Assembly (NCBI GenBank): GCA_963696385.1
Contig: CAVOKF010000006.1
Location: 64,001 to 128,000, forward strand
Source of the DNA: an uncultured delta proteobacterium
GTDB taxonomy: Bacteria; Myxococcota_A; Polyangia; Polyangiales; Polyangiaceae
Length of the DNA: 64,000 nt
Direction: 5' to 3'
Part shown: positions 11,217-50,411 of the stretch, piece after piece
How the letters are laid out: each line of letters opens with the position of its first letter
Numbering within the stretch: the first letter of the stretch is position 1
Position numbers and translations under genes: made by a program
Notes under the pieces: generated by a model
The model's database searches: none
What the model was told of the DNA's origin: nothing
The model's input: the letters and a program-made list of their open reading frames with translations, nothing else

Positions 11217-11253
11217 GGCGAAAACTCCGATGGGATTGCCCTGCGGTGGGCCG

Positions 11254-33079: not shown

Positions 33080-33155
33080 GGCGAGTAGTTAGCCCAAAGC
33101 ACGTCGGTCGACGAAGAGCCGCGGAAGAGGGCGCGGAAACATATCGCGTCTTAGG
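33080..33155 (+). repeat. ~115-bp dispersed repeat, copy A 5' part
   Basis: GGCGAGTAG..AAAGCACGTCGGTCGACGAAGAGCC..GGAAACATATCGCGTCTTAGG; continues at 35073-35111. Confidence 0.9.
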
Positions 33156-35072
33156 CTGAAGTTCCTGAACCAAAATCGCCGAAGTTCGCGATCTTGCTGT
33201 GGAATCGGCAAAATTGACCCGAAATGTAGGCATGTACGACGATAGAAATAGCTTTCCATTATCGATTCGATGTGCATGATGCGGAGGCATGTACATCGCA
33301 ACCGTGCCGAACCGCGGCTCTCCACCGGCGATCCTGCTGCGCGAGTCGTATCGAGAGGGCGGACGGGTCAAGTCGCGCACGCTGGCGAACCTGTCGTCGT
33401 TGACGGAAAAGCAGGTGGAGGGGATGCGGCGAGCGCTCCGCGGGGAGCCCTTGTTTGGCCCGGACGGGCCGATCCGAAAGGTGCGCGACCAAAGCCACGG
33501 TGCGGTCGACGCCGTTCGGCAAGTCATTCGCAAGTTGGGGCTCGAGGTCCTCATCGACCGACAACCAAGCCGCCAGCGCGATCTGGTGATGGCCCTGTTG
33601 GTGGCGCGCATCACCGATGCCCAGAGCAAGCTCGCGACGACGAGGGCCTGGAAGACCACGACCCTGCCCGAAGACCTCGGGATCGCGGATGCGACCGAAG
33701 ATGACCTGTATGACGCCATGGATTGGCTCTTCGAGCGGCAGGACGCGATCGAGAAGAAGTTGGCGACGCGTCACCTGCGCCAGCAAGGGTTGGTGCTCTA
33801 CGATCTGTCATCGAGCTATTTTGAAGGACACCAATGTCCGCTTGCCAAGCTCGGATACAACCGCGATGGCAAGAAGGGCAAGCTGCAGGTCAACTATGGC
33901 CTTCTCACCGATGAACGGGGCTGTCCCATTGCGGTCCAGGTTTACGAGGGAAACGCATCCGATTCGACGACGCTCCTCGACCAGGTGGAGCGTGTTCGAT
34001 CCGACTTCGGGATTGACGGATTCGTGATTGTGGGTGACCGCGGGATGATCACGGAGAAACAGATTTCGTCGCTTCGCAAAACCGGTGGGATGACCTGGGT
34101 TACCGCGCTCAAGAGCGGTCGCATTCGATCCCTCGTGCACTCGGGCGTTCTGCAACTCGGACTCTTCGACGAACGCAATCTGTTTTCCGTGCGGGACCCA
34201 AAACTTGCCGGTGAGCGGTTGATCGCATGCAAGAACCACGATCTCGCACGATTGCGCGCACACAAGCGCCAGAGCCTTGTCGACGCGACACGCAAAGAAC
34301 TCGACGCGGTGCAGAGAATTGTGGCTCGCGGAAAGCTGGTGGGCAAAGCAGCGATCGGGCTACGGATCGGAAAAGTGATCAACAAGCATAAGGTGGCCAA
34401 GCACTTCTTACTCGACATCCATGATTCCACATTCGAGTATCGCCTCCGCGAGGATCGCATCGCAGAGGAGGCAGCACTCGACGGCGTATACGTGATTCGT
34501 ACGTCCTTGAGCCAAGAGTCGACCAGCGACGAACAGGCCGTTCGCCATTACAAGAAGCTCGCGAATGTCGAACGCGCATTCCGATCCATCAAGACGATCG
34601 ACTTGAAGGTGCGCCCCATTCACCACCACTTGGAAAACCGAGTCCGAGCGCACATCTTCCTGTGCACGCTCGCTTTCTACGTGGAGTGGCACATGCGCGA
34701 AGCGTGGCGACCGGTCCTCTTCTCGGACGAGGACCAGGCTGCCAAGAACACGAGAGACCCGGTCGCGCCGGCCACCCGGTCGCCCGGTGCACTCGATAAG
34801 GTCGCCACCAAGCGAAGCGAGGACGGGGCGCCCGTCCACAGCTTCCGTACCCTGCTCGCCGATCTCGCCACGATCACGCGAAGCACCTTCGCGCCCGTCG
34901 GAGCCGACAACGAAGGCCAGACTTTCACTATGCTGACCGTCCCGTCACCCGAGCAAGCGAGAGCCCTCCAGCTACTCGAAGCCATCGCCGTGTAGGCAGT
35001 AACTCAGGCCACGATTTCGACGAATCCAGGGAAAATACGCCGAATTGTGTCCCGGCGGGCGGGGAACTTCAG
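33156..35072 (+). mobile_element. IS1634-family element
   Basis: IR CTGAAGTTCC/GGAACTTCAG; 6-bp duplication CTTAGG. Confidence 0.93.
33289..34995 (+). CDS. IS1634 transposase
   Basis: YDLSSSYFEG, GYNRDGK, GDRGM, VERAFRSIK. Confidence 0.93.
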   Translation: MYIATVPNRGSPPAILLRESYREGGRVKSRTLANLSSLTEKQVEGMRRALRGEPLFGPDGPIRKVRDQSHGAVDAVRQVIRKLGLEVLIDRQPSRQRDLVMALLVARITDAQSKLATTRAWKTTTLPEDLGIADATEDDLYDAMDWLFERQDAIEKKLATRHLRQQGLVLYDLSSSYFEGHQCPLAKLGYNRDGKKGKLQVNYGLLTDERGCPIAVQVYEGNASDSTTLLDQVERVRSDFGIDGFVIVGDRGMITEKQISSLRKTGGMTWVTALKSGRIRSLVHSGVLQLGLFDERNLFSVRDPKLAGERLIACKNHDLARLRAHKRQSLVDATRKELDAVQRIVARGKLVGKAAIGLRIGKVINKHKVAKHFLLDIHDSTFEYRLREDRIAEEAALDGVYVIRTSLSQESTSDEQAVRHYKKLANVERAFRSIKTIDLKVRPIHHHLENRVRAHIFLCTLAFYVEWHMREAWRPVLFSDEDQAAKNTRDPVAPATRSPGALDKVATKRSEDGAPVHSFRTLLADLATITRSTFAPVGADNEGQTFTMLTVPSPEQARALQLLEAIAV

Positions 35073-35111
35073 CTTAGGGGCTTCCGTTGTCACCGAGCGG
35101 CGAAAGATTGG
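35073..35111 (+). repeat. ~115-bp repeat, copy A 3' part
   Basis: CTTAGGGGCTTCCGTTGTCACCGAGCGGCGAAAGATTGG. Confidence 0.9.
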
Positions 35112-35614
35112 ATGGGGCGGCGGACGCGGGCGGGGACTGAACGAAGCGCGGGGCTACGACGGTACGAACGCGGAGGGTGCCCATGGAAGCGATCTCACGG
35201 ACGATCCAGGTGGACGGTGCCGACATCTACGTCGCGGAGCGTGGGACCGGTGAGCCGCTCCTCCTGCATCACCGAACACCGCGACGACACGCGCAAGGAA
35301 GCGATCGAACACCAAGAGCTTCTTCTCGGGTCGCTTCGGGTCGGAGCTCAAATCGATTCGCCGTTCAGCGACGCTGGCCATACGGGACTGGCGCACCGTT
35401 ACCGGTCAGCGAAGACGCCGTCCGAACCCCTGCTTTCCCGACCCCGACCCCGACCCGCCAGTACGCCCGTAGCCGGACGCAATTCCTGCGGACGTCGGCA
35501 GATCGTTCGCGGAGTGCGGGCTCTGCGGAAAGCCGACCGCCACGAACGGCTCGCCCGATCGGGTCCCTCTCGTCTGCTCTCGCAGGCCCGACTCGTGCTT
35601 CGTTGCAGATCGAC

Positions 35615-36181
35615 ATGGCGCCGGGGCAGACGCGCACTCGCAAGGATCCGGCAGAGCGCGGCCACCTGCGTCTCTTCTACCGGGATTGGCGCCCTACGCG
35701 CCTCGGGCGGATCGTGAACGGAGCCTGGGCCTGGCTCTCCGGGATGGGCCTGACGTCGCAAATCTTGCTCGCACTGCAGGTGAGGGGCCGCAACACCGGT
35801 CTCGTTCGTACGACGGTACTCGTGCCTGTCGACTGCGATGGCCGGCGCTATCTCGTGTCGATGCTCGGCGAGGCTTCGGAGTGGGTGCGGAACGTCCGCG
35901 CCGCGGACGGAGAGGCCTTCATCAAGCGAGGCGCTCGCCGGCCGGTGCGACTCACCGAAGTGCCTCCTGGAGAGCGAGGTCCCATCCTCAAGGCCTACTG
36001 CCGCGTGGCTACCAGTGGGCGCCACCATTTCCCCGTTCCCGAGGACGCACCCCTCTCTGCGTTCGAGGAAATTGCCTCCGAGTATCCGGTCTTCCGCATC
36101 GACCCCGGATCGACCGTGACCCCAACTACCCAATCCCGACCCCGTGAACGCCGGCTGCCCCGCTTCCTGGCGGACCCGTGA
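35615..36181 (+). CDS. Deazaflavin-dependent nitroreductase-like (DUF385) protein
   Basis: VRGRNTG, EWVRNVRA, YPVFRI; preceded by an alpha/beta-hydrolase N-terminal stub at 35183-35275. Confidence 0.75.
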   Translation: MAPGQTRTRKDPAERGHLRLFYRDWRPTRLGRIVNGAWAWLSGMGLTSQILLALQVRGRNTGLVRTTVLVPVDCDGRRYLVSMLGEASEWVRNVRAADGEAFIKRGARRPVRLTEVPPGERGPILKAYCRVATSGRHHFPVPEDAPLSAFEEIASEYPVFRIDPGSTVTPTTQSRPRERRLPRFLADP

Positions 36182-36344
36182 CTTCAAAGACGCTGCAGGT
36201 TCCGCGCAACCCGAAGAGGTCCTCCGGACAGGCACAGCCATCGAACGTCGAGCCACCGCCTTCCGACTCGGGGCTTGGTCGCCTTCCGGTGCCGGACGGC
36301 ACGACCCCGACCCCGACCCCCGACCCTTTTTTCCCGATCCGCCG

Positions 36345-36716
36345 CTACGGCCCCATGCCCGGGTCGAAGATCGGGCGCAACTCGGACTCGCCCTCGAACT
36401 CCGGCCAGTGCTTCCGGTGGAGCTCCATGAACTCGGTCGCGACGCGGATCGCTTCGGCTTTCGAGTCCGTCTGGAGGATCGCCCAGCCGCCGATGACCTC
36501 CTTCATCTCGGTAAACGGGCCGTCGGTCACGGTGAGCTTGCCGCCGGCGAGGCGGATGCGAACGCCCTCCTTGCTCGGGAGGAGCCCGCCCGTCTCGACG
36601 AGCGTTCCGTCCTTCAGGGACTTCTGGACGAACTGGCCCATCGCCTCCATGAGCGCGCGTGGCGGCCCGGCCTTTCGATACGACTCCGCGTGGCGAATGA
36701 ACGTCAGGTATTTCAC
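36345..36716 (-). CDS. YciI/DGPF-domain protein
   Basis: TDGPFTEMKEVIGG. Confidence 0.9.
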   Translation of the reverse strand: MKYLTFIRHAESYRKAGPPRALMEAMGQFVQKSLKDGTLVETGGLLPSKEGVRIRLAGGKLTVTDGPFTEMKEVIGGWAILQTDSKAEAIRVATEFMELHRKHWPEFEGESELRPIFDPGMGP

Positions 36717-36729
36717 GGTTTCTCTCCTT

Positions 36730-37224
36730 TCAGTTGCCTCTGTAGGCGCGATCGAGCGTCGCGATGTCCAGCTTGACCATCTTGAGCATGGCGTCGGTGA
36801 CCCTCTTCGTGCGGGTCACATCGCGGTCGCGCATCATCTCTTCGAAGACCGCCGGGACGATCTGCCACCGGACGCCGAAGCGATCGATGAGCCACCCGCA
36901 CGCCTGCGCCTTGCCCCCCGCCTCTAGGAGCCCGTTCCAGTAGCGATCGAGCTCCGCCTGATCGTCGCAGCACACGACGAGCGACATGGCGTCGTTGAAG
37001 TCGTGGTGCGGACCCGCGCTTATGGCCCGCAGCCGCTGTCCGAAGAGGGTGAAGTCCACGACCTTCACCGAGCCGGCCGGTCCGCTCGGCGAGTCGCTCG
37101 GCAGCGCGGTCACGTGGTCGATCCGCGAATCTGGGAAGAGGGACGTGTAGAGCTTGGCCGCCTCCTCGGCCTCTTTCGCGTACCAGAGATGCGTCAGAAT
37201 CTTCGTGCGTCGTGCTTCTGTCAT
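36730..37224 (-). CDS. VOC/PhnB-family protein
   Basis: AEEAAKLYTSLF, CGWLIDRFGVRWQIVP. Confidence 0.9.
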   Translation of the reverse strand: MTEARRTKILTHLWYAKEAEEAAKLYTSLFPDSRIDHVTALPSDSPSGPAGSVKVVDFTLFGQRLRAISAGPHHDFNDAMSLVVCCDDQAELDRYWNGLLEAGGKAQACGWLIDRFGVRWQIVPAVFEEMMRDRDVTRTKRVTDAMLKMVKLDIATLDRAYRGN

Positions 37225-37310
37225 GACCGGCCTCCTCTCAGGCATCTTCGATCCAAGGACGAACGTGCGGGCACCGAGCCGACACGCCGGCAACGTTTTT
37301 CTCGCAGACC

Positions 37311-38213
37311 CTACCCGGCCTCCTTCCTTCGCGTCAGCCGGTCGATTTGCAGCCGAATGTGCGCCGCTTCCGCCGGGGACTTGGCGAGGGCGAGCGCGCG
37401 ATCGAACGCCTCGCGCGCCTCGTCGCGTCGGCCGAGGTCCACAAGCAGAGCGCCGCGGACGCCGAAGAAGTAGAAGTACCCGGACAGGTCCTTTGCCAGC
37501 GCGTCGAGCATCGCCAGCGCCGCGGCCGGACCGCGCAGCTTGGCCACCGCGACGGCGCGGTTGAGCGAGACCACCGGCGACGGCTGGAGGCGCTCGAGCA
37601 CGGCGTAGAGCTGTTCGATCTCCGCCCAGTCCGTGTCTTCGAAGCAGGGCGCGCGCGCATGGATCGCGGCCACGGCGGCCTGCACCTGGTACGGCCCTGG
37701 GCGGGCGTGGCGGAGTGCCTTGTCGAGCAGCGCGAGGGCCTCCGCGATGCGGTCGCGGTCCCACAGGCCACGGTCCTGATCTTCGAGGAGAACGAACGCA
37801 CCCTGCGCGTCGAGCCGCGCCTTCGATCGCGAGTGCTGAAGGAGCATGAGCGCGTTGAGCCCGAGCATCTCGGGCTCTCCCGGAAACAGTCGGAGGAGGA
37901 GCCGGGCTAGACGGATGGCTTCGTCGCACAGCGGGACGCGCACGTGGGCGCCGCCGCCCGTCGCCGAGTACCCCTCGTTGAAGAGGAGGTAGAGGACGGC
38001 CGCCACGGCCGCCAACCGCTCTGCGCGCTCCGGCGCGCCCGGCGTCTCGAAGGGGATGTCCTCCGCGGCAACGCGGTTCTTGGCCCTTGTGATCGGCTGC
38101 TCCATCGCGACGTCGGTCACCAGGAACGCGCGGGCGATCTCCGGGACGGTGAGGCCGCAGACGATCCGCAACGCGAGAGCGATCTGCTGGGTGGCGAGAG
38201 GGCGAGAATGTGC
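37311..38213 (-). pseudogene. ECF sigma factor with long C-terminal extension, N-terminally truncated
   Basis: ALRIVCGLTVPEIARAFLV, LYLLFNEGY, GPYQVQAA; region 2 absent. Confidence 0.8.
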
Positions 38214-40066: not shown

Positions 40067-41206
40067 TTACGGGCTGAGGGGCATAGCGGCCGGCAAGACG
40101 CACGTGTTGCCCACGCAGGAAGGCGCTATTTCGAGAGGGCAAGCGCACTCGCCAAATGCGATTCCGCTCGTGGCCTCTTCGTAGCGAGCCTGCTCGGCGG
40201 CATTCACGGGAGAACCGCCGCAGGCGCACTCCGAGCTGCAAACCTGTCCCGTAAGGATGACGATGCAGTCGGTCGCGACGACACACGATTGATCGTAGGT
40301 CGACAGATCGATGTCGACGCACAGGCCCCCGTCTGCCGCAGGAGGCGTGGTGGCCGCGTCGGCGCAGCCCGCAGGCTGAGTGCTTCCGGCCGCGCAAAGC
40401 GTGCACTGACCGGCCAGGCAGCGGGCTTCTCCCTGGAAGGCGCACGGGCAGCTCTCCAACTTCAAGGGCGCCGTATCGGACGCGAAGCGCGCGGCCGCGC
40501 CCGCGTTGACGGGCGTATCGCCGCATGAGCACTGGCCTATGCAGACTGCGCCCGAGCGGACGAGCTCACAATCTTGATCGCTGCCGCAGGTGAGGTCCGA
40601 TGGGGCCGGTTCGAAGTCGATGCACTGCGATCCCCCGTCGGTCGTCCCCGCGTCGACGCCCGAATCGGCGGTTTTGACTCCCGAGTCCCTGTCGCCTGCT
40701 TCCTCGACGCTGCCGTCCACGACGCCGCCGTCGGCTCCACCCTCCTTGGCCAATGGGGTGCCGGAGTCGGAGCAACCCGACGGCTGATTCGTGATGTCCA
40801 GCCCGCAAAGCGTGCACTGACCGGCTAGACAACGCGGTTCTCCGTCGAAGGCGCAAGGGCAGCTCTCCAAGTTCAAGGTCGCCGTATCGGACACGAAGCG
40901 CGCGGCCGCGCCCGCGTTGACGGGCGTATCGCCGCAGGCGCATCCGCCCTGGCAGACCTGCCCCGTGCGCACGACCGTGCAATCCTGGTCTTGCTCACAA
41001 ACCAAGTCGGCCGCGGTGGCTTCGAAATCAACGCATGCGGCACCGCTGTCGGTCGTGCCGGCCTCGGCGCCCGAATCGGCGGTTTGGGGTCCCGAGTCCT
41101 TGCCGGAGGGCGCTGCTGCGCTGAAAGCGTTGCCCCCACATCCGGCGCCAAGCCACGTCACGAAAAGGATGCGAGCGATGCGGTGAAGAGTGGCGGAGAG
41201 GGGCAT
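40067..41206 (-). CDS. Cys-rich lipoprotein with three internal repeats
   Basis: LGAGC lipobox; three C..D.DC...G.VC...C.CG.P units. Confidence 0.8.
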   Translation of the reverse strand: MPLSATLHRIARILFVTWLGAGCGGNAFSAAAPSGKDSGPQTADSGAEAGTTDSGAACVDFEATAADLVCEQDQDCTVVRTGQVCQGGCACGDTPVNAGAAARFVSDTATLNLESCPCAFDGEPRCLAGQCTLCGLDITNQPSGCSDSGTPLAKEGGADGGVVDGSVEEAGDRDSGVKTADSGVDAGTTDGGSQCIDFEPAPSDLTCGSDQDCELVRSGAVCIGQCSCGDTPVNAGAAARFASDTAPLKLESCPCAFQGEARCLAGQCTLCAAGSTQPAGCADAATTPPAADGGLCVDIDLSTYDQSCVVATDCIVILTGQVCSSECACGGSPVNAAEQARYEEATSGIAFGECACPLEIAPSCVGNTCVLPAAMPLSP

Positions 41207-41441
41207 TGCCCGTGAACGGCAGCAAGATCAGCGCCACAACCTAGAGCGTCGGGAAAGAGCCTTTGAATCGTGGGTTCCCCGGCCGATGGCACAGTCGAAG
41301 TGGCGCAACATGGGCGCAACTGTCGCGGGGCTCGCCCCGTTGTTCCGTTCCGCGCGTCGTGTCGAGTGCGACGGTTTCCCACTCGCGTCGAGCGCTGTCC
41401 AAGCGGGAGCCGAGGTGATCACCCTTGCGCGCCGGGAACTT

Positions 41442-41675
41442 TTACCGTCGAAAGCGCCCGGGGGAAAAATGCCCTCGTCGACCCTCGTGAGCCCAAGCAG
41501 CAGCCGCCCAATGCCTGCCGGGCCGCTCGAGCTCCCAGCGCCCTCCGTACCACACGCGACCGCGCGGTCCCCATGCCCAGTAGCCGGGGATCCAAAAGTG
41601 ATTCGGGGACGGGCGAAGAGGGGCGACTTCCAGCCGGCGAGGGCCCCGGGGCCAGTAAGCGCCCGGGGCTACTCG
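41442..41675 (-). pseudogene. YXWGXW-repeat protein, C-terminal fragment
   Basis: FWIPGYWAW..VWYGGRW; 5' end replaced by repeat copy B. Confidence 0.65.
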
Positions 41676-41677
41676 AC

Positions 41678-41767
41678 AAGTGCGTCGGTCGACGAAAAGC
41701 CGCGGAAGCGGGCGCGGAAACATATCGCGTCTTAGGGGCTTCCGTTGTCACCGAGCGGCGAAAGATT
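41678..41767 (+). repeat. ~115-bp repeat, copy B (IS1111 target)
   Basis: ...GGAAACATATCGCGTCTTAGGGGCTTCCGTTGTCACCGAGCGGCGAAAGATT. Confidence 0.92.
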
Positions 41768-41981
41768 AGATGAACCGGTGGCGGCGCGTCCTGGACCGCC
41801 CGGCACGCCGCCCGGCACGGGTGCCGCAGCCTCGAGATCGATCGCGGGGCGTCTCGAGAGCAGCCCCCGTGCCGGTCGTCGGTCATCGAAAATAGCGACC
41901 GACCTCCCGCTGGATTATCCATCCGACACCCCCGCGTGCTCAAAGGCACAAAGCGAAGTGGGGGCCGAAGGGAGATCGATC

Positions 41982-43133
41982 ATGCGGAGCATAGGATTGG
42001 ATCTTGGAGCGCGCCACATTGCGTATTGCGAGATACGGAACGGAGAGGTCATCGATCGGACCTCTGTGAAGAGGCTGGACCAACTCAAGTCGCGAATCGG
42101 CCCCGACTGTCCACCTGCGCGGATTGCGTTTGATGCGTCGCGTGAAGGATGGCACGTGCACGATACCCTCACGTCGTGGGGGCACGATGCGAAGATGATC
42201 GATACGACGCGGGTGCGTGCGATGGGCGTCGCGCATCACAAGCGCAAAAACGATGCTCTCGATGCTGAGGCGGCCGCACGTGCCGTAGACCAAGGACGGA
42301 TCCCCGAGGCGCACATTCTGTCTCCCGCCCGCCGAGCCCTGCGCGCGCAGTTGAGCGTGCGCGGCGCGCTGGTCGAAACACGTGCGCAGTATGTGACGAC
42401 GATACGCGGGCTCGGGCGCGCGGCAGGCGTGCTCCTTCCCACATGCACAACCGAGAACTTTGTGAACAAGGTTCGCGAGAGCTCGCTCGACGACGCGACG
42501 AGCACGCTCATCGCGCCGCTCCTTGCCGTGCTCGTCGGAGTCGAAGAAGAGCTCACCAAGGTCGAACGGACGCTTTCGGAAATGGCGATGCGTGAGCCCA
42601 TCACGAAACTTCTCGCCACCGCTCCTGGCGTCGGCCTTATCGTGGCGTCCACCTTCGTTTCGGTGATCGACGAGGCGAAGCGCTTTCGCAATGCGCAGGC
42701 AGTCGGAGCGTACCTTGGTTTGGTGCCGTCGGAGTTGACGACAGGCGGACCTGAAAAGCGGCGCCTGGGCTCGATCACCAAGCAGGGCAACACGTATGCG
42801 AGAAAAATGCTCGTCCAAGCGGCGTGGCTCATCCTCAGGTCACGCGACATGGACGACCCGATTCGCCAGTGGGGCGACCGCATCGCCAAGACGCGAGGCA
42901 AGAGAATCGCCGTCATCGCCATCGCACGAAAACTCGCCGGCGTCCTCTGGGCGATGTGGCGCGACGGCACCGCTTACGATCCGGTGGGACAGGCCAAGGC
43001 GAGCGCAAAGGGCACTCGCAGAGAGGCTCGTTCGAAAAACGCGAATGCGGAGGCGCTCGAACGCTCCGCCAAGAAACTCCAACGGCGGGCTCCTCGCCGC
43101 AACAAGATTTCGGAGGACGTCGCCATGACATGA
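41982..43133 (+). CDS. IS110-family recombinase
   Basis: GLDLG, KNDALDA, PGVG, YLGLVP, ARKL. Confidence 0.95.
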   Translation: MRSIGLDLGARHIAYCEIRNGEVIDRTSVKRLDQLKSRIGPDCPPARIAFDASREGWHVHDTLTSWGHDAKMIDTTRVRAMGVAHHKRKNDALDAEAAARAVDQGRIPEAHILSPARRALRAQLSVRGALVETRAQYVTTIRGLGRAAGVLLPTCTTENFVNKVRESSLDDATSTLIAPLLAVLVGVEEELTKVERTLSEMAMREPITKLLATAPGVGLIVASTFVSVIDEAKRFRNAQAVGAYLGLVPSELTTGGPEKRRLGSITKQGNTYARKMLVQAAWLILRSRDMDDPIRQWGDRIAKTRGKRIAVIAIARKLAGVLWAMWRDGTAYDPVGQAKASAKGTRREARSKNANAEALERSAKKLQRRAPRRNKISEDVAMT

Positions 43134-43520
43134 ATCGTCACGACTGTCTCCGATGCGCCTTGAGCGCGTAGCCTAAGAGCACCCCATCTGGAGGAACGTT
43201 GAACGCGACAAATTGGTAGAAGCTCTTGCGATCTCCGCTCCGGTGGAGACGTGACTGTACTTCGTGCGAAAAATTGCGTCTCGTTCCACCGCTTCGAATC
43301 CAAATCTACGTCTCGGGCCTTGGACGCGAACTTCGCTGCCCGATGAACGTGAAGAGTCAATCGAGAGGTAGCTCGCCAAGCCGCGCGTTCGGAGCGCTCC
43401 CCTTACTGTCACCGTGCTCCGGCGCCCTCAAGCGCCGAGAAGGGAAACGTCCATTGAATTCTAAGAACCCAGCTCACTCCGAAACGAAAAAAAGAAAACT
43501 CTCTGCGCGAAAACCCTTGC
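43134..43520 (+). ncRNA. Putative bridge/seek RNA
   Basis: Position expected for IS1111; stem GAGACGT/ACGTCTC encloses target-matching segments; boundaries approximate. Confidence 0.6.
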
Positions 43521-43547
43521 CCACGCCACCGGTTCAGAGTCCGATTT

Positions 43548-43810
43548 GGCGGCATCACCTTGCGCACTCGCCGTAGCCAGCCGCTACGTCTCGCGATCGC
43601 GGTCACCTGCTCCTCGCCGAGTACTTCCGTAAGCCGTTTCGCATACACGCCGACTCCGGCGCGTGTACTGTTTGATCCGTGCATCGGGGGTCTCCTTTCG
43701 CGTTGTCTCACAACAGCGTCTAGAGAATCCCCGATGCCTTTGACTATCCAATTCGTGCACTATGCACGTAAGTGATCGAGATCACTCGGGAAATAAAGAT
43801 CCTACCTATG
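43548..43810 (-). mobile_element. IS4 end fragment
   Basis: Near-identical to about 45962-46223. Confidence 0.92.
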
Positions 43811-43857
43811 ATCGCGTCTTAGGGGCTTCCGTTGTCACCGAGCGGCGAAAGATTTGG
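43811..43857 (+). repeat. ~115-bp repeat, copy C 3' half (empty IS1111 site)
   Basis: ATCGCGTCTTAGGGG...GAAAGATTTGG. Confidence 0.92.
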
Positions 43858-43921
43858 CCAGCCCGGGACGCGAACGCGCGGGCGCTTGATCTTTCCCTCA
43901 ACGGGTCCGATGCTAGCCGCC

Positions 43922-44122
43922 ATGACTGGCAGCCCAGTTCCGTCGTATGAGCACGAGGACTCACCCGAGGTGGCGGCCCTGCGTAAGCGCATCCGTGGCG
44001 AGCCGCTCTCAGCGGCGGAAGACGCCCTCCTCGCGTCCGCGACGCGCAAGCCGTCCGGGCCCGGTGTACTGCACGCCGAGGTAATGGCCGAGCTCGCCGA
44101 GCGCGAACGCCGCGGCGAATGA
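43922..44122 (+). CDS. Small putative antitoxin
   Basis: 66 aa, ATGA-coupled to next gene; VLHAEVMAEL-type tail. Confidence 0.5.
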   Translation: MTGSPVPSYEHEDSPEVAALRKRIRGEPLSAAEDALLASATRKPSGPGVLHAEVMAELAERERRGE

Positions 44123-44337
44123 TCGTAGTTTGGGACGAGTCCGCCCTCGAGAGCTGGCGCCGCTTGTCGCTGAGCGATGCGAGGGCGGTCGCCGAGGCTG
44201 TCGAGCGATGGGCGCAGACGGGACAGGGTCTCGTCGTAGCCGTCGACGGGGAGTTCCAGCTCTTCGTCGGTCAACACGTCGTCGTGATGCTCGTGGCCCG
44301 CGATACGCTCTACATCGACCGCGTGCGCCGGGCTTAG
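44119..44337 (+). CDS. Small RelE/ParE-like putative toxin
   Basis: MIVVWDESALESWRRL...LFVG..VV...LYIDRV pattern. Confidence 0.5.
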   Translation: MIVVWDESALESWRRLSLSDARAVAEAVERWAQTGQGLVVAVDGEFQLFVGQHVVVMLVARDTLYIDRVRRA

Positions 44338-44674
44338 GCCCTCAGCAGCTCCGGGGGAGCCCTGCCGCCATCCGCCGGAAGCAGTATCGGCTTCGTGAAT
44401 GGTCAGTCGGCGTGTCTCAGCGCGTCCAACTTCCGCTCGGAGGCTCGCGCCGAATCGCGTTGATCAGTCGCCCGGCGAGGCGAAACGGGCGGCCCGAGCT
44501 GCTGCCCATTACGCTTGAAGGATGTGGTGCGAGCGATCCGCGCGGCGGTGCCCATGGCGCGCGGTTCGTGCAGGAGGCATCGCCGTCCTCTTGGCACTCG
44601 TTGCCTTGGCTGTTTCCGGCGCGGTCTACAACTGGTTGGCAGTTCGACATCTTCGCAGCATCTACCCGCCTCCG

Positions 44675-44747
44675 GGCGAGTAGGAAACGAAAAGCGTGTC
44701 GGGCGATGAAGAGTCGCCGAAACCACCGCGGTCACATATAACCCGTT
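44675..44747 (+). repeat. ~115-bp repeat, divergent copy D 5' part (3' part 46224-46267)
   Basis: GGCGAGTAG..AAAGCGTGTCGGGCGATGAAGAG..ACATATAACCCGTT then AGGGGCTTTCG..GATTTGG. Confidence 0.85.
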
Positions 44748-46223
44748 CATAAGTTGGTACTTAGAGATTCGGGATGGCGCTCGCTATCACACAAGTGCGA
44801 GTGGCTCGAGGCCCATAGCGAGACGTCCGCGCTTTCGATCGCGAGCAGGATGAGCGCGGCGCGCGTTGGAATCGAGGAACTTGAGCGTTTCGGCGAGGGC
44901 ACGACGTAGTTGGCGCGGCGAGTCGAGAAGGCCGCGGAGGACATCGTCGAAGTAATGCTTGCCGGACGCGGCGGCTCGCTGGGTCGAAAGCTCCACCCCC
45001 AGCGACGCTTCCGCGAAGTGTGCGAGCGAGCGTTTCAGAAGGGCTGCGAGCAGGCTCGCCCATATCATCGCTTTCGCGATAGCGGCCTTGCCCGTATCGA
45101 AGGCATGAAGGTTGGCGTGGGATTTGAACTCTTTGAACAGGAGTTCCACCTGCCAGCGGAGGCGATACAAGCCGGCCACGTCGGCGGCGGAGAAGCGCTT
45201 GCGAGCGAGGTTGCTGTGCAGGTACACGAACGTCTTCGCGTTGCGCTTGCCGCGCTTGTAGATCGCCACAATTCGGCCGCGATACACGAATGAATTCGCC
45301 TGCCATTCGATGTCGAGATCGACCGTCTGGGCCGGAAGCAGGTCCCAGTTCAACTTCTGGCCGAGCAACTTGGGGATGGATTTGCCGGCGCTGTCGAAAG
45401 CGGCCCGAATGGTGGGTCGAATGTTTTTGGTTCCGCGGACGATGAAGGCGCCGCCCGCTTGGTCGACGTCGAAAAAGAATGTTCGCTCCTCGTACCCTCG
45501 GTCGGCCAGAAAGAGCCGCTCGCGAAGACTCGCGGCCTCGGGACGGTAGGTTCGCTCGGTCTCCTTGTCGGCCGTCAGGGCGACGATGCGCACATCGTCT
45601 TGGAGCAGACTCATCGTGACGTGCAGTTCCACGGCGGCAGGCGAGATTTTTGTAAAGCGGCCCGGCCATGTGCCTTTCAAGTCGTCCTTGAGCGCGAACG
45701 ACGTCCCGTCGTGAATGACGATGTCCCGAAAGGTCGACAGTTTGGGGGACACGGCGTGCAGAACCGGCTGGCTCATCTTCTGTACCGTCGCTTCCAGCAG
45801 CATCCGAAACATCTCTGGAAAGGACGCTTGCGCGAGCCGGTTGTGAAAGGGCTTATATCGCAGCGAAAGGCCCGCGAATTTCCGGAACGTCCGCAGAATA
45901 TCGGCCAACCACTTGGCGTGGCCCGACCCGAGCGTCGACAGCACCGCCACGACCATCGCCAGCGGCATCACCTTGCGCACGCGCCGTAGCCAGCCGCTAC
46001 GTCTCGCGATCGCGGTCACCTGCTCCTCGCCGAGTACTTCCGTAAGCCGTTTCGCATACACGCCGACTCCGGCGCGTGTACTGTTTGATCCGTGCATCGG
46101 GGGTCTCCTTTCGCGTTGTCTCACAACAGCGTCTAGAGAATCCCCGATGCCTTTGACTACCCAATTCGTGCACTATGCACGTAAGTGATCGAGATCACTC
46201 GGGAAATAAAGATCCTACCTATG
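44748..46223 (-). mobile_element. IS4-family element
   Basis: CATA-starting imperfect IRs; 10-bp duplication ATAACCCGTT. Confidence 0.92.
44787..46097 (-). CDS. IS4 transposase
   Basis: HDGTSF, ADRGY, YRLRWQVELLFKEFK. Confidence 0.92.
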   Translation of the reverse strand: MHGSNSTRAGVGVYAKRLTEVLGEEQVTAIARRSGWLRRVRKVMPLAMVVAVLSTLGSGHAKWLADILRTFRKFAGLSLRYKPFHNRLAQASFPEMFRMLLEATVQKMSQPVLHAVSPKLSTFRDIVIHDGTSFALKDDLKGTWPGRFTKISPAAVELHVTMSLLQDDVRIVALTADKETERTYRPEAASLRERLFLADRGYEERTFFFDVDQAGGAFIVRGTKNIRPTIRAAFDSAGKSIPKLLGQKLNWDLLPAQTVDLDIEWQANSFVYRGRIVAIYKRGKRNAKTFVYLHSNLARKRFSAADVAGLYRLRWQVELLFKEFKSHANLHAFDTGKAAIAKAMIWASLLAALLKRSLAHFAEASLGVELSTQRAAASGKHYFDDVLRGLLDSPRQLRRALAETLKFLDSNARRAHPARDRKRGRLAMGLEPLALV

Positions 46224-46429
46224 ATAACCCGTTAGGGGCTTTCGTGGTCCGTGCAACGGCGATTTGGCATCTCCCCGCCCATCTTAGGCTCACACGCAGA
46301 ACGCGTCTTGTCGATCGGTCTGCCGCGAGCACTGCCCCGCGCCTTGTGGAGCCGGCGCCCGCAAGGGATTGCGAGCGCTCTTCTTGCGTGTCCCGCGGCT
46401 GGTCGAGGAGCTCGGGGGCGTGCGCGCAG

Positions 46430-46825
46430 ACTCTCGCGCCCATCGAAAAGATCGACGTGCTCGTACTCGACGACTTGTTGCTCACGCCTATGAAGGACGC
46501 GGAGCGCCGCGATCTCCTCGAAGTGCTCGAAGACCGTTACGACCGATGCTCGACGGTCATCACATCGCAATCACCGACCAAAAGTTGGCACGCAGCGCTC
46601 GGTGATCCGACGATCGCCGACGCGATTTGCGATCGCCTGGTGCACAACGCCCACGTGCTCGCGTTACGCGGACCCTCCATGCGGAAGAAGAAGGGCCTTT
46701 CGCCCAACCAGGAAACCGAACCCACCTGACCACCCCTCGTCGCTTCGCTCCGATCGTGATCGGGTGCGTCGGAACGGTTGATCGGGTCCGTCCGGAATGA
46801 GCGATCGGGTCGACCGGAATACGCA
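46430..46825 (+). mobile_element. istB: IS21 remnant (IstB C-terminus and right end)
   Basis: VLVLDD, ADAICDRLVHNAH; GATCGGGT..GGAA repeats ending ATACGCA. Confidence 0.88.
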
Positions 46826-46880
46826 ACCGACGTCGATCTCGGCGCCGAGTACGCCTACTGAACCCATCGCGTCGAGAACT

Positions 46881-46976
46881 CCAAATGGGACTCTGAACCG
46901 GCAGTGGACGCCCCTAAAACGCGATATGTTTCCGTGGCTCTTCGTCGGCCGACACGCTTTGCTTGTCCTATCCGCC
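46881..46976 (-). repeat. ~115-bp repeat copy E fused to an IS1111-like right tip
   Basis: Minus: AAAGCGTGTCGGCCGACGAAGAGCCACGGAAACATATCGCGTTTTAGGGGC + CCGGTTCAGAGTCCCATTTGG. Confidence 0.85.
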
Positions 46977-47773
46977 CATTGCGTATCCGGAAACGGGCAC
47001 ACCGCAGGGCGGGGTGATTTCGCCGATTCTGGCGAACATTTTCCTGCACGAGGTGCTCGACGTCTGGTTTGAGCGCGAAGTTAAACCAAGGCTTTCGGGC
47101 AAGGCGCTGCTCGTCCGCTACGCGGACGATGCAGTGCTTTTGTTTTCGCATGAAGTGGATGCCCGCAAGGTGCTGGACGTGCTGCCGAAGCGATTGGGTG
47201 CGTACGGCCTGGCGCTGCATCCCGAGAAGACGCGGTTGGTGGAGTTTCAGCGCCCTGACCGTCGCTCATCGAAAGTCGATGGCGGCGACCGAGGTCCTGG
47301 CAGCTTCGACCTACTCGGCTTCACGCACTACTGGGGCAAAGCTCGCTCTGGCAAGTGGATTGTCATGCGCAAAACAGCCAAAGACCGCTTCCGGAGAGCG
47401 GTGTCGCGGGTCGCGCAATGGTGCAGGGAGCACCGGCACGACGCCATCCGCGAGCAGCAGAAGGCACTTGGGCAAAAGCTGCGTGGTCACTACGGATATT
47501 ACGGAATCACCGGGAATTTCCGCGCCATCGCGCTCTTCTGCCGCAAGACTATTGCGTTGTGGCGCCGGTGGCTCAACCGCCGGTCGCAACGACGCCATAT
47601 GCCTTGGAAGCGAATGCGGCTTCTGCTGGAGCGCTACCCGCTCCCGCCGCCTCGCATCGCTCACCCATTTCTCCCGCGCGCAGCGAACCCGTGACCGAAG
47701 AGCCGGATGCGTGAATTGCGCACGTCCGGATCCGAAGGGGGGCCGGGGAGACAACCTCCCCGGCCTACCCGAC
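46977..47773 (+). mobile_element. Group II intron 3' half (RT4 to maturase X, DV, DVI)
   Basis: PQGGVISP, RYADD, FDLLGF, LRGHYGYY; DV GAGCCGGATGCG..CACGTCCGGATC; ends CCTACCCGAC. Confidence 0.93.
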
Positions 47774-47863
47774 TGACAACGAGCGCCCCAAAGGCCTTTT
47801 ATGTGACCGCGGCGGTTTCCGCGTCTCTTCGTCGGCCGACAAGCTTTGCGCCGCCTACTCCCC
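47774..47863 (-). repeat. ~115-bp repeat, divergent copy F, interrupted by intron
   Basis: Minus: GGGGAGTAG..AAAGCTTGTCGGCCGACGAAGAG..ACATAAAAGGCCTTTGGGGCGCTCGTTGTCA. Confidence 0.85.
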
Positions 47864-47942
47864 CGACTTCTCGTGGTCCCGGCGTTGCTCACTTCTCGCT
47901 CTGCTCCGCCGTTCCAGCAGGTCGCTGGAGACCACGAGACCT

Positions 47943-48111
47943 GTTGCGGTAGGGACGGCCCTCGCCCTGAGGTTCGGGCCGCCCCCCGCGCGGATCCCGG
48001 CGTGCGGAACTACCGCACCGGGCTCTTGCCTTGGGTTCTGACGCGCATGGGCAGCGATGGAAAGTTTCAGCTTTCCTTGACCTCCTCTTTCCCCAAGCTT
48101 GCTTGGCGCAC
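47943..48111 (-). mobile_element. Second group II intron remnant (DV-DVI, possible 5' end)
   Basis: Minus: GAGCCCGGTGCGGTAGTTCCGCACGCCGGGATC...CCCTACCGCAAC. Confidence 0.8.
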
Positions 48112-48122
48112 TGAAAATCCAG

Positions 48123-48225
48123 GCTAGCCGAGCCGGCACGCTCTGCGCGCCGATGGCATTCACGATCTGCTGCGCGGCCCACGCGGCGTACGGGTGCGCC
48201 GTCACGTTGACGTGAACTGGTCGCC
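48123..48225 (-). pseudogene. Integrase-core transposase fragment
   Basis: VHVNVTAHPYAAWAAQQI. Confidence 0.65.
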
Positions 48226-48497
48226 GACCGCTTCCACGATGGGCACTCGATAGACGCCGGACTTGAGAGGACAACCTCCAGTCGCTCCTCGACCGCCCGG
48301 AAGGTCACAAAACACCTTGCTTAGTCGAAGCACCGGCCATATAGTCCGCATGTAGCGGGGTGGAGCCCCAGGTGTCCGTTCCGCGGACGCGAAGGTGGCT
48401 CTGAAGGGCCATGCACACACGCTAAAAGACAATCATCAGTAGATGGGAAGATCGAAATTCCGGGTCACATCCAGCTAACCCGTATAGAGAGGCTACA

Positions 48498-49493
48498 ATG
48501 CGCAACCAGTGCTACGTGACGATCGCCACCGTATTTTTCGCGGCGCTCTTTGGCCAAGAGTCCTCTGCGTCCGCGTGCACCTGGGGGGATCCCAATTGCG
48601 AATGGGTCCAAATGAACAACCCCACTGGCGTGGACAAAAATAGCTTGATCGCCGTCAGCGTGAATTCGGGACCCAGCCAGAGTAGTGTATTCTATTTCGT
48701 GGCCACATCTACCGGCGTTTACGAGGGGATCGTCAGCACTCCCCAATTGAGCAGCGTAAATTGGGGCTCGGTGGGCACCCTTAGCGAATTTAACGAGTCG
48801 GATATGAGGCAAATCACCGCCGACAGTAATCCTGGTGGAGATCTTTACTTGATCGACAGCATCGGTAACCCTCTTTTTTACATAGTCAACGGCTCACTCG
48901 GCCAGGGCCCGAACTACAACCATGGCCCTATGGGCACCATTATTGGCATTAGCAGTGAGACCCCCTACGAGCCGGCTCCGGGTTACCCGTTTAAAGTGTG
49001 TCAATTTCCTACCGATATAGCCGTCGATGAAGAGTTGAATGTCTATGTTGTCGGCTGCGGCAACAACTCGTTTTGGGTCGCACCACATACGGGTTCCAAC
49101 ACCTGGGGACGGTGGGCCTCGTATGCCGTCGGAGGGGCTGCAAACCTAGTTGCCGTTGGAGCAAATGCGAATTTTGCGGAGCAGGGCCCATGGGTTGTCG
49201 ACGCAAACGGACTCACGTTTCAAGTGCAGTCGAACGGCAACTCCGCTGCAATTGCGCGGCCCGAGTGGATCAGCAACACTGCGCACTCAATCGGCGTGTA
49301 TGGTCAGAATAACCAGGCTACCGCGATTGGCGGGGAATCCGAAGTATGCCAATGGACCTCGGGGTCCGGGGGGGGGTGGAACTGCCCGTTTCTCGGTGGC
49401 CAATCAGTCCAAATATCTGTGCAAGGGTACACCGTGTTTGTCGAAAATTCGGCCAGCAACCTATTTACTTACTCGAACGACATCGTCTTTTAA
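48498..49493 (+). CDS. Secreted beta-rich (propeller/lectin-like) hypothetical protein
   Basis: Signal peptide; Asn/Ser/Gly/Trp-rich; visibly lower GC. Confidence 0.7.
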   Translation: MRNQCYVTIATVFFAALFGQESSASACTWGDPNCEWVQMNNPTGVDKNSLIAVSVNSGPSQSSVFYFVATSTGVYEGIVSTPQLSSVNWGSVGTLSEFNESDMRQITADSNPGGDLYLIDSIGNPLFYIVNGSLGQGPNYNHGPMGTIIGISSETPYEPAPGYPFKVCQFPTDIAVDEELNVYVVGCGNNSFWVAPHTGSNTWGRWASYAVGGAANLVAVGANANFAEQGPWVVDANGLTFQVQSNGNSAAIARPEWISNTAHSIGVYGQNNQATAIGGESEVCQWTSGSGGGWNCPFLGGQSVQISVQGYTVFVENSASNLFTYSNDIVF

Positions 49494-49582
49494 CTAGGAT
49501 TGGCGTGCGAAGCTGCTGGCTCCGTGCGTCCTTGTGAATTCCCTTGGCGCTCTCGAGGGCCTGAAAACCAGGTCGTACACCA

Positions 49583-50105
49583 AATGGGACTCTGAACCGG
49601 TGGCGTGGGCAAGGGTTTTCGCGCAGAGAGTTTCTATTTTTCGTTTCGGAGTGAGCTGGGTTCTTAGAATTCAATGGACGTTTCCCTTGTCGGCGCTTGA
49701 GGGCGCCGGAGCACGGTGACAGTAAGGGGAGCGCTCCGAACGCGCCGCTTGGCGAGCTACCTCTCGATTGACTCTTCACGTTCATCGGGCAGCGAAGTTC
49801 GCGTCCAAGGCCCGAGACGTAGATTTGGATTCGAAGCGGTGGAACGAGACGCAATTCTTCGCACGAAGTACAGTCACGTCTCCACCGGAGCGGAGATCGC
49901 AAGAGCTTCTACCAATTTGTCGCGTTCAACGTTCCTCCAGATGGGGTGCTCTTAGGCTACGCGCTCAAGGCGCATCGGAGACAGTCGTGACGATTCATGT
50001 CATGGCGACGTCCTCCGAAATCTTGTTGCGGCGAGGAGCCCGCCGTTGGAGTTTCTTGGCGGAGCGTTCGAGCGCCTCCGCATTCGCGTTTTTCGAACGA
50101 GCCTC
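49583..50105 (-). mobile_element. IS1111 3' fragment, inverted
   Basis: Reverse complement of about 43023-43546 with a few SNPs. Confidence 0.93.
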
Positions 50106-50304
50106 CCACAGACGCAGAGGACCCGCTGCTGTGAAGAACGTTCTCTGCGCGCCATCAATGGAGGCGCAACGATAGCTGCTCTCCAAGTCTCTCCGGTGCG
50201 CCCTCGCCCGCAAAGTGATCGACGAGCCGATCGGCGAGGAGTGCGATCGTCTCACTCGTCACATCCTCCCCGAAGAGTGGGGCGTCGAGGAATCGCGCGA
50301 GCGC

Positions 50305-50411
50305 GGCGAGTAGTAAGCCCAAAGCACGTCGGTCGACGAAGAGCCGCGCAAGCCGCGGTGGAAACATATCGCGTCTTAGGGGCTTCCGTTGTCACCGAGC
50401 GGCGAAAGATT
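50305..50411 (+). repeat. ~115-bp repeat, copy G (IS1111 target)
   Basis: GGCGAGTAGTAAGCCCAAAGCACGTC...GAAAGATT. Confidence 0.92.

Follow-up and report, generated by a model that had tools for sequence, protein, structure and literature searches.

A ~110-nt repeat, probably the terminal module of an IS91-type rolling-circle element and a favoured target of other mobile elements

The ~110-nt repeat that recurs in the window (the whole 64,000-nt stretch of DNA that was analysed) is probably the terminal module of a rolling-circle insertion sequence of the IS91/ISCR family. In this genome the IS91-type element persists mainly as mini copies that lack its gene, and several other mobile elements appear to favour these as targets. 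As the outer end of an IS91-type element, the repeat would be a known kind of element and no new recombination site. The original prediction, which described a structured landing pad and read it as either an attC-like recombination site or a non-autonomous element, was partly confirmed in its observation and partly supported in its interpretation: the second of its two readings stands.

The repeat module and its linkage to a Y2-HUH transposase gene

A profile built from 37 near-full copies was used to search the contigs of the 6.94-Mb genome, which is 96.4% complete. The search gave 99 matches, far above the number expected by chance. In total, 46 of the 99 matches were near-full and uninterrupted, spanning the model from position 3 or lower to at least position 108. 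Most copies were solo units of ~110 nt with two sharp boundaries. Alignments showed that the two ends are dissimilar to each other, with GAGTAG... at one end and ...GATTTG or CAATTG at the other. The seven copies predicted in the window were all recovered at their positions, both in the sequence itself and by the genome-wide profile search, and the predicted consensus was reproduced.

Profile searches for PF04986 (Y2_Tnp) gave matches at four loci in the genome. The module was present at all four Y2-HUH transposase genes, at a constant distance 3' of the stop codon, and the last bases shared by the four loci were ...CTTACTACTCGC(C/T). One of these genes lies 1.1 kb past the right end of the window. 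The module follows the stop codon of the 569-585-aa transposase gene by ~70 bp, antisense to the orientation in which it was first described. What had been called its 5' end (R-G-C followed by GAGTAG...) is the outer tip of the full element, the place of oriIS in IS91. The translated transposase contains an HFH motif, a YRLKY motif and zinc ribbons, and scored 62.3 bits with PF14319 (cut-off 26.3) and 85.2 bits with PF04986 (cut-off 20.9). It is 37-41% identical to IS91/ISCR transposases of plasmids, and remained under the curated NCBIfam cut-offs for IS91 (96.9 vs 125 bits) and ISCR clade Ia (285.7 vs 925 bits). The suggested search for a co-occurring HUH recombinase was positive, and the repeat matches a known insertion sequence end at the family level, an outcome that the original prediction had named as evidence against itself. 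Transposase-gene remnants were found on the inner side of seven modules, with lengths of 800 nt or more in four copies and ~620, ~400 and ~265 nt in the others. No left end (terIS) was identified for the full element.

Homologues of the transposase occurred in 25 of the 41 genomes searched. Most of the 14 relatives' loci that were inspected had a tip of the ...GTAGG type and a motif of the TTGAGC...CAAAGCGCAC type 3' of the gene. One relative carried its own 112-nt module, with a second, 100% identical copy 2492 nt away; the 11-kb locus of this relative contained no inverted module copy upstream of the transposase gene.

The attachment to a Y2 gene bears on whether the repeat is a REP/BIME-like or IS200/IS605-derived palindromic element moved by a Y1 HUH transposase. 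Such an element would likewise be short, palindromic and without terminal inverted repeats, and REP sequences are also targets of IS110/IS1111-type elements (PMC11187229). However, a search for Y1_Tnp (PF01797) gave no match in the 96.4% complete genome, and we attach next to no weight to this explanation.

Gene order at the transposase loci is relevant to another possibility, namely that the module is the origin of transfer of a conjugative or mobilisable element. The IS91-like HUH protein would then be a relaxase working with coupling and ribbon-helix-helix (RHH) proteins, and the solo copies would be orphan transfer origins. A gene for a TraG/VirD4 coupling protein (PF02534, 197.8 and 152.6 bits), an RHH gene, the Y2-HUH gene and the module do follow each other in this order at contig C4:33.6-38.3 kb; the same order is found in decayed form at C7:1397-1402 kb, and also in one relative with a 69% identical transposase. 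Moreover, a complete RHH gene precedes both transposase genes of this genome that have an uncut 5' side, and a third transposase gene, cut by an E-type module copy, retains the 3' part of the RHH gene. Conversely, neither gene was present upstream at six of eight relatives' loci inspected, plasmid relatives of the HUH protein are annotated as transposases, and some 100 dispersed copies with a target motif suit transposition better. We consider it improbable that the module is a transfer origin.

The pairing of the module arms bears on the comparison of the repeat with attC, i.e. with a site that folds as single-stranded DNA, is used by a tyrosine recombinase and separates integron-like cassettes. 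The arms do constitute an inverted repeat, imperfect and with some unpaired bases. It comprises 15 pairs and shows 88.0% standard pairing, versus 30-49% when the arms are slid against each other. Covariation, however, was not recovered. Shuffled arms gave 87.5% and 129 of 500 shuffles reached the observed value, while arm pairs changed on both sides numbered one, versus 1.1 expected. In copy D, which was said to keep its pairing through compensatory changes, pairing CGATG with CGTGG by hand left one G.G mismatch. Furthermore, single-strand DNA folds of eight copies were not better than those of shuffled sequences (z from +1.10 to -1.66). Because the arms do not covary, they represent a fixed palindrome rather than a proven structure.

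Several other features fit an attC-like site. The module copies lie in a cassette-like region, some of their clusters contain tyrosine recombinase genes (424-458 aa) or have them nearby, and attC sites are visited by group II introns. They are known to be visited by IS1111-family elements as well (PMC11187229). Yet no integron integrase was detected in the 96.4% complete genome; the best matches to TIGR02249 reached 68.5 bits, against a cut-off of 265, and resemble Xer proteins. Module copies occur on both strands within each cluster and often stand tail to tail. The attC boxes (R''/L''...L'/R') end in GTTRRRY, whereas the module has GATTTG or CAATTG at its 3' end. The repeat also physically belongs to a HUH transposon, and an attC-like site is very improbable.

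Copies in the window and the elements that land in them

Copy A is split in two. Its outer (5') part, recognised in the sequence and by a profile match to model positions 1-76, lies at 33080..33155 (+), and its inner (3') part, terminating in GAAAGATTGG, at 35073..35111 (+). The interruption is an IS1634-family insertion sequence (33156..35072, +) with a 571-aa DDE transposase (NF033559, 327.7 bits, cut-off 100), flanked by the 6-bp target duplication CTTAGG at 33150-33155 and 35073-35078.

Copy B (41636..41767, +) is a variant with a segment of ~35 nt after GGCGAG, which it has in common with three other copies. The standard module runs from 41678 onward, which had been taken as the start of this copy; the true start is near 41636. 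An IS1111-family element with a DEDD transposase gene (41765..43538, +; NF033542, 216.6 bits for IS110/IS1111, cut-off 140) sits at the inner end of this copy. Non-coding DNA of ~410 nt lies 3' of its transposase gene, and 12-bp subterminal inverted repeats, GAACCGGTGGCG, are present near both of its ends. The family criteria were taken from PMC11187229, and the ends of the element were placed by the 7/3-bp rule of the family, with an uncertainty of up to ~10 bp. Past the element, the tail of the copy B module (GTCCGATTTG, 43539-43548) is followed by a 262-bp right-end remnant of an IS4-family element (43549..43810, -). The left junction of this remnant joins an internal IS4 position to the tail of copy B, while its right junction, with copy C, is the usual IS4 insertion point. 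Copy C (43811..43856, +) consists of the inner part alone (model 64-111), and the 800 nt downstream of it are 99.75% identical to the 800 nt downstream of the copy at C4:1023128.

Copy D belongs to a divergent subfamily. Its outer part (44675..44746, +) comes after a short open frame that ends in YPPPGE and stops at the copy, as predicted, and its inner part (46225..46267, +) terminates in CGATTTGG. The two parts are separated by an IS4-family insertion sequence (44747..46224, -; 181.3 bits, cut-off 115) with the 8-bp duplication TAACCCGT. This element is missing from one metagenome contig, which joins 44737 to 46224. Metagenome contigs break at the module repeat.

Between copies D and E, which face inward, an IS21-type IstB helper gene is represented by a C-terminal fragment (46409..46726, +). 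Copy E (46881..46977, -) has its outer tip at 46977, and the 21 nt at its inner end (46881-46901) correspond to the right-end tip of an IS1111-family element; this hybrid recurs in one other copy, at C4:1135639. Next to the tip follows a truncated group II intron, of which the 3'-terminal 796 nt remain (46978..47773, +); these comprise the C-terminus of the reverse transcriptase and domains V-VI. Comparison with a full intron copy showed that copy E cut the 5' side of the intron at 46977/46978, in line with the predicted contact between outer ends and truncated genes. Full copies of the intron are ~1.96 kb long and start with GTGCG, which fits the GUGYG expected at the beginning of a group II intron. 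The 3' end scored 39 bits with RF00029, versus an Rfam gathering score of 40, and the fragment 132.9 bits with TIGR04416, cut-off 300. The intron is located in copy F (47774..47865, -; model 4-93), after GTTGTCA and on the strand opposite to the module. Farther to the right are the last 525 nt of an IS1111-family element (right-end fragment, 49581..50105, -), copy G (50305..50411, +), which is complete up to model position 109, and a second full IS1111-family element (50409..52192, +), inserted at the module position that is also used in copy B. The profile scores agree with all predicted families (IS1634, IS4, IS1111 and group II intron).

The claim that every copy is hit holds for the window, where all seven copies are interrupted or abutted, but not for the genome, given the 46 near-full uninterrupted copies. 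The landing-pad observation itself extends to the whole genome, and the module is probably a preferred target of other mobile elements. All six copies of the IS1111-family element with an intact left end were at module position 109, and the group II intron was inside modules in all three of its near-identical copies, in two module subfamilies. The IS4-family element was inside modules at nine of 20 loci and the IS1634-type element at two of ten. In addition, a MITE-like insert of ~165 nt recurred in five module copies. A comparison for a guide (seek) RNA of the IS1111-family element that is complementary to both target strands gave just one 8-mer and one 7-mer match, which by estimate is about chance level.

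Flanks, boundaries and the spread of solo modules

The outer tip (GAGTAG) was preceded by R-G-C in 59 of the 64 distinct outer flanks, with R at -3 in 59, G at -2 in 62 and C at -1 in 58 of them. After the inner ...TTG, (A)GC was found in just 28 of 51 distinct inner flanks. Four junctions were compared with an uninterrupted homologue: R-G-C was already present in two homologues, absent in one, and ambiguous in one, where it was off by a base. The case of absence is a junction within an IS4 copy, which carries GAGC, whereas the intact IS4 does not. Given this junction and the one that is off by a base, R-G-C is no more than putatively target-derived.

At all three junctions compared with relatives, colinearity was confined to the outer flank. 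None of the solo copies examined in this genome, and none of 26 module copies of two relatives that were compared with it, had a matching empty site in which the two flanks are contiguous. Since no empty site was recovered, we infer rather than observe that the 110-nt unit moves autonomously.

The solo modules might instead be immobile as 110-nt units, i.e. scars of deleted or recombined full elements that spread via segmental duplication and homologous recombination only. The missing empty sites are in line with this, as are the graded series of transposase-gene remnants beside modules and the mosaic composition of the 5' and 3' halves of modules among copies. Moreover, two copy pairs have an 800-nt outer flank in common and one further pair ~106 nt, and non-IS DNA on the inner side is common to only two copy pairs. 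Bardaji et al. drew the same conclusion for most IS801 fragments in genomes (PMC3189936). However, the same two sharp boundaries recur throughout the distinct flanks, 64 outer and 51 inner ones, and random deletions would not all end at a single base. Also against scars are the R-G-C rule at the outer tip and a second lineage, whose solo 112-nt copy matches the end of the full element at 100% identity. We therefore judge this explanation unlikely, though deserving of some weight.

If the modules are mobile IS91-type ends, the transposase would nick between the target R-G-C and the tip, and peel off the strand that reads as the repeat was originally written. Transfer would often terminate ~110 nt inward, at ...TTG, yielding gene-less mini copies, which the transposase could re-mobilise in trans, as experimentally shown for IS801. 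Recombination among the ~100 copies may swap flanks, and could thereby produce truncated genes at tips, mosaic modules and the cassette-like patchwork. The IS1111-family element, putatively RNA-guided, would use one fixed position at the inner end of the module, the IS4-family and IS1634-family elements and the small MITE-like insert would use the stretch ACATATCGCGTCTTAGG, and the group II intron would home after GTTG(T/C)CA.

A more speculative possibility, to which we give little credence, joins several of these readings. The ~110-nt unit would be a self-sufficient mini rolling-circle element that contains both an origin and its own stop, and its autonomous form would be accompanied by a type IV coupling protein and an RHH gene. 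One HUH enzyme would both transpose modules and pass the DNA linked to them into a conjugation channel. As portable start sites, the modules would assemble and exchange gene cassettes, and an RNA-guided IS1111 element and a group II intron would use them as their dedicated address. If true, this would be an integron-like shuffling system driven by a HUH enzyme.

Comparison with known systems

The module shares its architecture with oriIS of IS91/ISCR elements, as described in PMC13181058, where the right end of IS91 (82 bp plus the adjacent target tetranucleotide) is the origin and contains subterminal palindromes. Both lie downstream of a Y2-HUH transposase gene, measure ~80-110 bp and have imperfect subterminal palindromes. 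A specific short target adjoins oriIS, with no duplication seen, and the R-G-C in front of the module tip may be such a target. An accessory small gene precedes the transposase gene in each case, orf121 in IS91 and the RHH gene here. In contrast, the transposase reaches only 37-41% identity with its plasmid counterparts and falls below the curated cut-offs given above.

The target preference of the IS1111-family element resembles that of IS4321/IS5075 in Tn21 inverted repeats, ISKpn4/ISPst6 in attC and ISPa11 in REP sequences (PMC11187229). As in that family, the element studied here encodes a DEDD transposase, bears subterminal repeats (12 bp) and has a long stretch of non-coding DNA behind the gene, and it uses one fixed position in six of six cases. 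In contrast, the end of an IS91-type element is not among the targets in the available part of PMC11187229.

The resemblance to attC consists of an imperfect inverted repeat that lies between gene-sized blocks and receives insertions of both an IS1111-type element and a group II intron. The module differs in that no integrase was found, its copies have mixed orientation, R/L boxes are missing and it is attached to a HUH transposon.

Non-autonomous Helitrons of eukaryotes are a further parallel. They move by a rolling-circle mechanism with a Y2-HUH protein, their gene-less copies outnumber the autonomous ones, and they sit at junctions of captured gene fragments. The modules may be compared with them in these three respects by analogy only, as Helitrons are eukaryotic, have a helicase domain and carry other end motifs.

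The closest precedent of the solo modules is formed by the miniature right-end derivatives of IS801, for which PMC3189936 (Bardaji et al. 2011) describes lengths of 229, 360 and 679 nt and an origin via one-ended transposition. Like these, the modules are gene-less, retain just the end downstream of the transposase gene, have a short motif on their inner side and would be moved by the transposase in trans. However, the unit of ~110 nt is shorter than the 229-679 nt of the IS801 derivatives and is bounded on the inside at one fixed position, R-G-C takes the place of GAAC/CAAG as the motif, and the modules are far commoner than full copies, with ~99 matches versus four transposase genes. The IS801 derivatives were regarded by the authors of that study as seeds of homologous recombination, a role that the modules may share.

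A delimited module in about a hundred copies

The original prediction described seven copies (A-G) of a repeat, here called the module (~110 nt), at 33080..50411 of the window, and all seven were found at the predicted positions. With copy G as the BLAST query, 77 matches were obtained in the genome (6.94 Mb, 8 contigs, 66% G+C), of which 37 were near full length. A profile built from these 37 copies yielded 99 matches on both strands (E <= 0.01), concentrated in a few IS-rich regions and often near contig ends. At ~110 nt each, these matches make up about 0.16% of the genome. Positions <=3 to >=108 of the profile were spanned by 46 matches, all distinct in sequence. The borders were sharp, with ...R-G-C|GAGTAG on one side (the outer tip) and ...GATTTG or ...CAATTG on the other (the inner end), and the flanks were unrelated to one another. 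At least three subfamilies were distinguished, with halves combined in mixed ways. The module is a real, abundant and well-delimited element.

Copy B shows no truncation at 41678; its start is near 41636, where GGCGAG precedes a ~35-nt variant segment common to three other module copies. This segment (window 41636-41677; C6:22245, C7:1370153 and C7:1434088 on other contigs) is G+C-rich and palindromic, GGCCCCGGGGCC...GCCCGGGGC, and, following GGCGAG, replaces the usual TAGTAAGCCCA. At C2:140842-140877 (minus strand), the first 18 nt of the module (CGAGTAGTAAGCCCAAAG) occur in tandem, directly before a full module.

The outer tip was preceded by a clear motif: of 64 distinct outer flanks, 62 had G at -2, 58 had C at -1 and 59 had R at -3, without bias at positions beyond -3. 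We compared four outer junctions with uninterrupted homologues. At the first, a relative's module follows ...GGCGGAAGC, where this genome has ...GGCGGGAGC and continues uninterrupted. At the second, the gene of another relative reads ...GTCGC|GAGCG versus ...GTCGC|GAATAGG here, with the rare flank CGC. The third junction, in the intron cut by copy E, fits the R-G-C comparison only with one extra G, and at the fourth, inside an IS4 copy, GAGC is present without a counterpart in intact IS4. By these comparisons, the R-G-C motif is probably the target, as in IS91; a motif that is always target-derived was rejected at one of the four junctions (GAGC at the IS4 junction). The inner border was as sharp as the outer one, with (A)GC next in 28 of 51 distinct flanks, and an inner end that always finishes in GC would fit these 28 flanks only. 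The GC at the inner end of copy B is part of the neighbouring IS4 sequence.

The module as an IS91-family end

Four loci in the genome matched the IS91 transposases in Pfam (PF04986), one of them starting 1.1 kb past the right end of the window. In all four, the alignment begins inside or upstream of the gene, passes the stop codon and a ~70 bp spacer, and runs into the module. Here the module lies antisense to the orientation of the original prediction, and the similarity stops at ...CTTACTACTCGC(C/T). Hence, the supposed 5' end of the module is the outer tip of the element. The transposase protein has an IS91 zinc domain, a Y2 domain and the motifs HFH and YRLKY, and is 37-41% identical to plasmid IS91/ISCR transposases. 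Because it scores below the NCBIfam curated cut-offs, we regard it as a distant member of the IS91 family. Inward of seven modules, transposase-gene sequence extends over 800+ nt (four copies), ~620, ~400 and ~265 nt. The module is the origin-side end of an IS91-family rolling-circle transposon, an element of a known kind, and is mostly present as orphan mini copies (solo copies, which lack the transposase gene).

In the description of IS91 in PMC13181058, the right end, downstream of the gene, is the origin, and 82 bp plus the adjacent target tetranucleotide are enough for its function. This end carries imperfect subterminal palindromes, the active strand is antisense to the gene, and a small upstream gene, orf121, improves termination (PMC13181058). 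Fixed imperfect palindromes are likewise found in the module, where the predicted arms were paired in 88.0% of the cells, compared with 30-49% in slid controls; a separate count on 46 copies gave 82.8%. The compensatory evolution that had been read into this pairing found no support: shuffling of partners among sequences left 87.5% paired, the observed value was reached by 129 of 500 shuffles, and a change on both sides was seen in one arm pair only. Single-strand DNA folds of eight copies had z-scores from +1.10 to -1.66, and in RNAalifold-type folding of 46 copies, a consensus structure was absent under DNA parameters and almost absent under RNA parameters. An Rfam scan of 30000-54000 at E <= 1 returned the intron and one chance match only, and no family fits the module.

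The comparison of the module with attC does not hold, and an integron-like system is disfavoured, since no integron integrase was found in the genome, the module orientations are mixed and the module is linked to an HUH transposase. A REP/RAYT-type origin is excluded as far as the 96%-complete genome allows. For the IS91-family element, the search for a left end gave no common border: the two copies with intact 5' parts already diverge inside the ribbon-helix-helix (RHH) gene upstream of the transposase gene. About 100 bp upstream of the RHH gene, one of them has an IS3-type element and the other a coupling-protein gene. No inverted module was present in the relative's locus examined for the left end.

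Homologous transposases occurred in 25 of the 41 related genomes searched, a tally that takes in the unpublished genome G010, which was used for no other result. Most of 14 relatives' loci inspected have kept, downstream of the gene, a tip of the ...GTAGG type and a motif of the TTGAGC...CAAAGCGCAC type; the sequence in between has diverged, and the module profile matches only four of the 14. A relative with a 69% identical transposase has its own 112-nt module, with a second, solo copy 2492 nt away at 100% identity. A search with one subfamily as query found the module family of this genome in two of 31 genomes of the genus, and copies of the subfamily-3 type are present in a third genome too. 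Around three modules, the flanks in locus L069 (contig C245 of the relative G003) and at C7:1355.4-1357.1 kb are 100% identical between two genomes filed as different species, which points to recent exchange or a shared mobile region.

The open point of greatest interest is the linkage of the transposase to a coupling protein. At two loci in this genome (C4:33.6-38.3 kb, L012; C7:1397-1402 kb, L051) and at one locus of a relative (L050/L018; transposase 69% identical), the transposase gene is immediately preceded by genes for a TraG/VirD4 coupling protein and a 145-aa RHH protein, and both genes are missing at six of eight relatives' loci. None of the titles from a literature search dealt with IS91-type enzymes working with coupling proteins. 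The coupling-protein unit has an exact starting base (GCGAAGCCATACGG...) that is the same in at least three upstream contexts unrelated to one another (L039 from 922 onward, contig C3:483321; C8:3786; C3:14679; L052 in a relative), one of them a module's inner end. Such a common start suggests that the unit may itself be the end of a mobile unit.

Three further features of the window were recorded. A fragment of the RHH gene with its ~100 bp upstream region (11011-11314, minus strand) and a 424-aa open frame for a tyrosine recombinase (about 17205-17363) both lack an adjoining module. A 386-aa minus-strand open frame (40070-41227), without a Pfam match, contains direct repeats of 187 and 100 nt at a spacing of 411 nt (40180-41105).

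Other mobile elements within the modules

The original prediction that the module is a landing pad for other mobile elements was borne out and extends genome-wide, to IS1111-, IS4- and IS1634-type elements, a group II intron and a ~165-nt insert. In the window, an IS1634-family element, with a 6-bp duplication, interrupts copy A, and copies B and G each contain the same IS110/IS1111-family element at the same point. The two parts of copy D are separated by a complete IS4-family element, with an 8-bp duplication; the module position is that of the IS4 sequence in copy C, of which only the inner part is present, after a 262-bp IS4 remnant. The final 21 nt of the IS1111-type right end lie in copy E, and the 3' end of the group II intron in copy F.

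The IS1111-type element has an intact left end in six copies, all of which abut the module at profile position 109; the nine remaining matches are fragments that lack this end. The element's subterminal repeats are 12 bp long, and its gene is followed by a ~410-nt non-coding region. Such a region encodes a guide RNA in the IS1111 family, as described in PMC11187229; a search for guide-target complementarity in the present element gave matches no better than chance. The IS4-type element lies in modules at nine of 20 loci, at positions 64-73 and in both orientations, and one further fragment borders on a module tip. For the IS1634-type element, two of 10 loci are in modules. The ~165-nt insert was found at position 65/66 in five module copies and is complete in one relative. 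All three near-identical copies of the group II intron (full length ~1.96 kb, starting with GTGCG) follow GTTG(T/C)CA, in at least two module subfamilies. Because modules occupy only about 0.16% of the genome, these insertion frequencies would, by simple proportion, be far above chance. What stands out in these results, and is moderately new, is that several other mobile elements target the module in a nested fashion.

A related group II intron was also seen at locus L036 of the relative G020. It lies in the terminal module of an IS91-type element that is likewise related, but its orientation relative to the transposase gene is the opposite one. Of an IS1111-type right end, 25 nt (CGCCACCGGTTCACAGTCCGATTTG) remain at C1:323760-323790. 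They precede a gene that, in a relative, follows a complete module, joined at the same base.

Origin and probable movement of the solo copies

Since no pair of filled and empty sites was found, we infer movement of the 110-nt unit from one fixed inner border across dozens of unrelated contexts, the outer flank motif and an identical solo copy in a second lineage. Three observations indicate heavy later recombination. Module halves are mosaic. Some modules form inward-facing pairs, for example D and E, which enclose an IS21 fragment, and a pair on contig C4 only 29 bp apart. In comparisons with relatives, the outer flank alone was colinear in all three cases, and the rest of the cut gene was missing from the genome. 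In one case, the inner border and the next gene were common to a relative and this genome, which would fit a module that carried its downstream DNA along.

The flanks of solo copies (profile positions <=3 to >=100) gave no adjacent flank-match pair in this genome, and those of 26 module copies from two relatives matched filled sites only, on a 100% identical segment. Public metagenome contigs over 43500-50420 break at the module, and no module-free site was readable among them. One contig from one run joins 44737 to 46224 and thus has an IS4-free module, and loose ends were consistent with intron-free modules, IS1111-free modules and full intron copies. A 936-nt contig (two runs) continues for 87 letters past 44677, unlike copy D.

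The modules fit both halves of the picture drawn for IS801 by Bardaji et al. (PMC3189936). In their account, one-ended transposition of IS801 gave trapped right-end fragments of 229, 360 and 679 nt, and most genomic fragments look like rearrangement products and serve as recombination substrates.

The striking patchwork region of this soil and peat myxobacterium is thereby explained, and no new mechanism is needed. About a hundred gene-less end modules have been left across the genome by an IS91-type rolling-circle element; they mark breakpoints, truncate genes and offer a common address to recombination and to other mobile elements. In annotation, they should be masked as IS91-family ends, not as RNA genes, attC sites or new repeats. 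The system goes slightly beyond the textbook in that the mini copies heavily outnumber the autonomous ones and are of fixed size, that at least five other types of mobile element occur at fixed positions of the same 110 bases, and that the gene for the transposase has a conjugative coupling protein linked to it.
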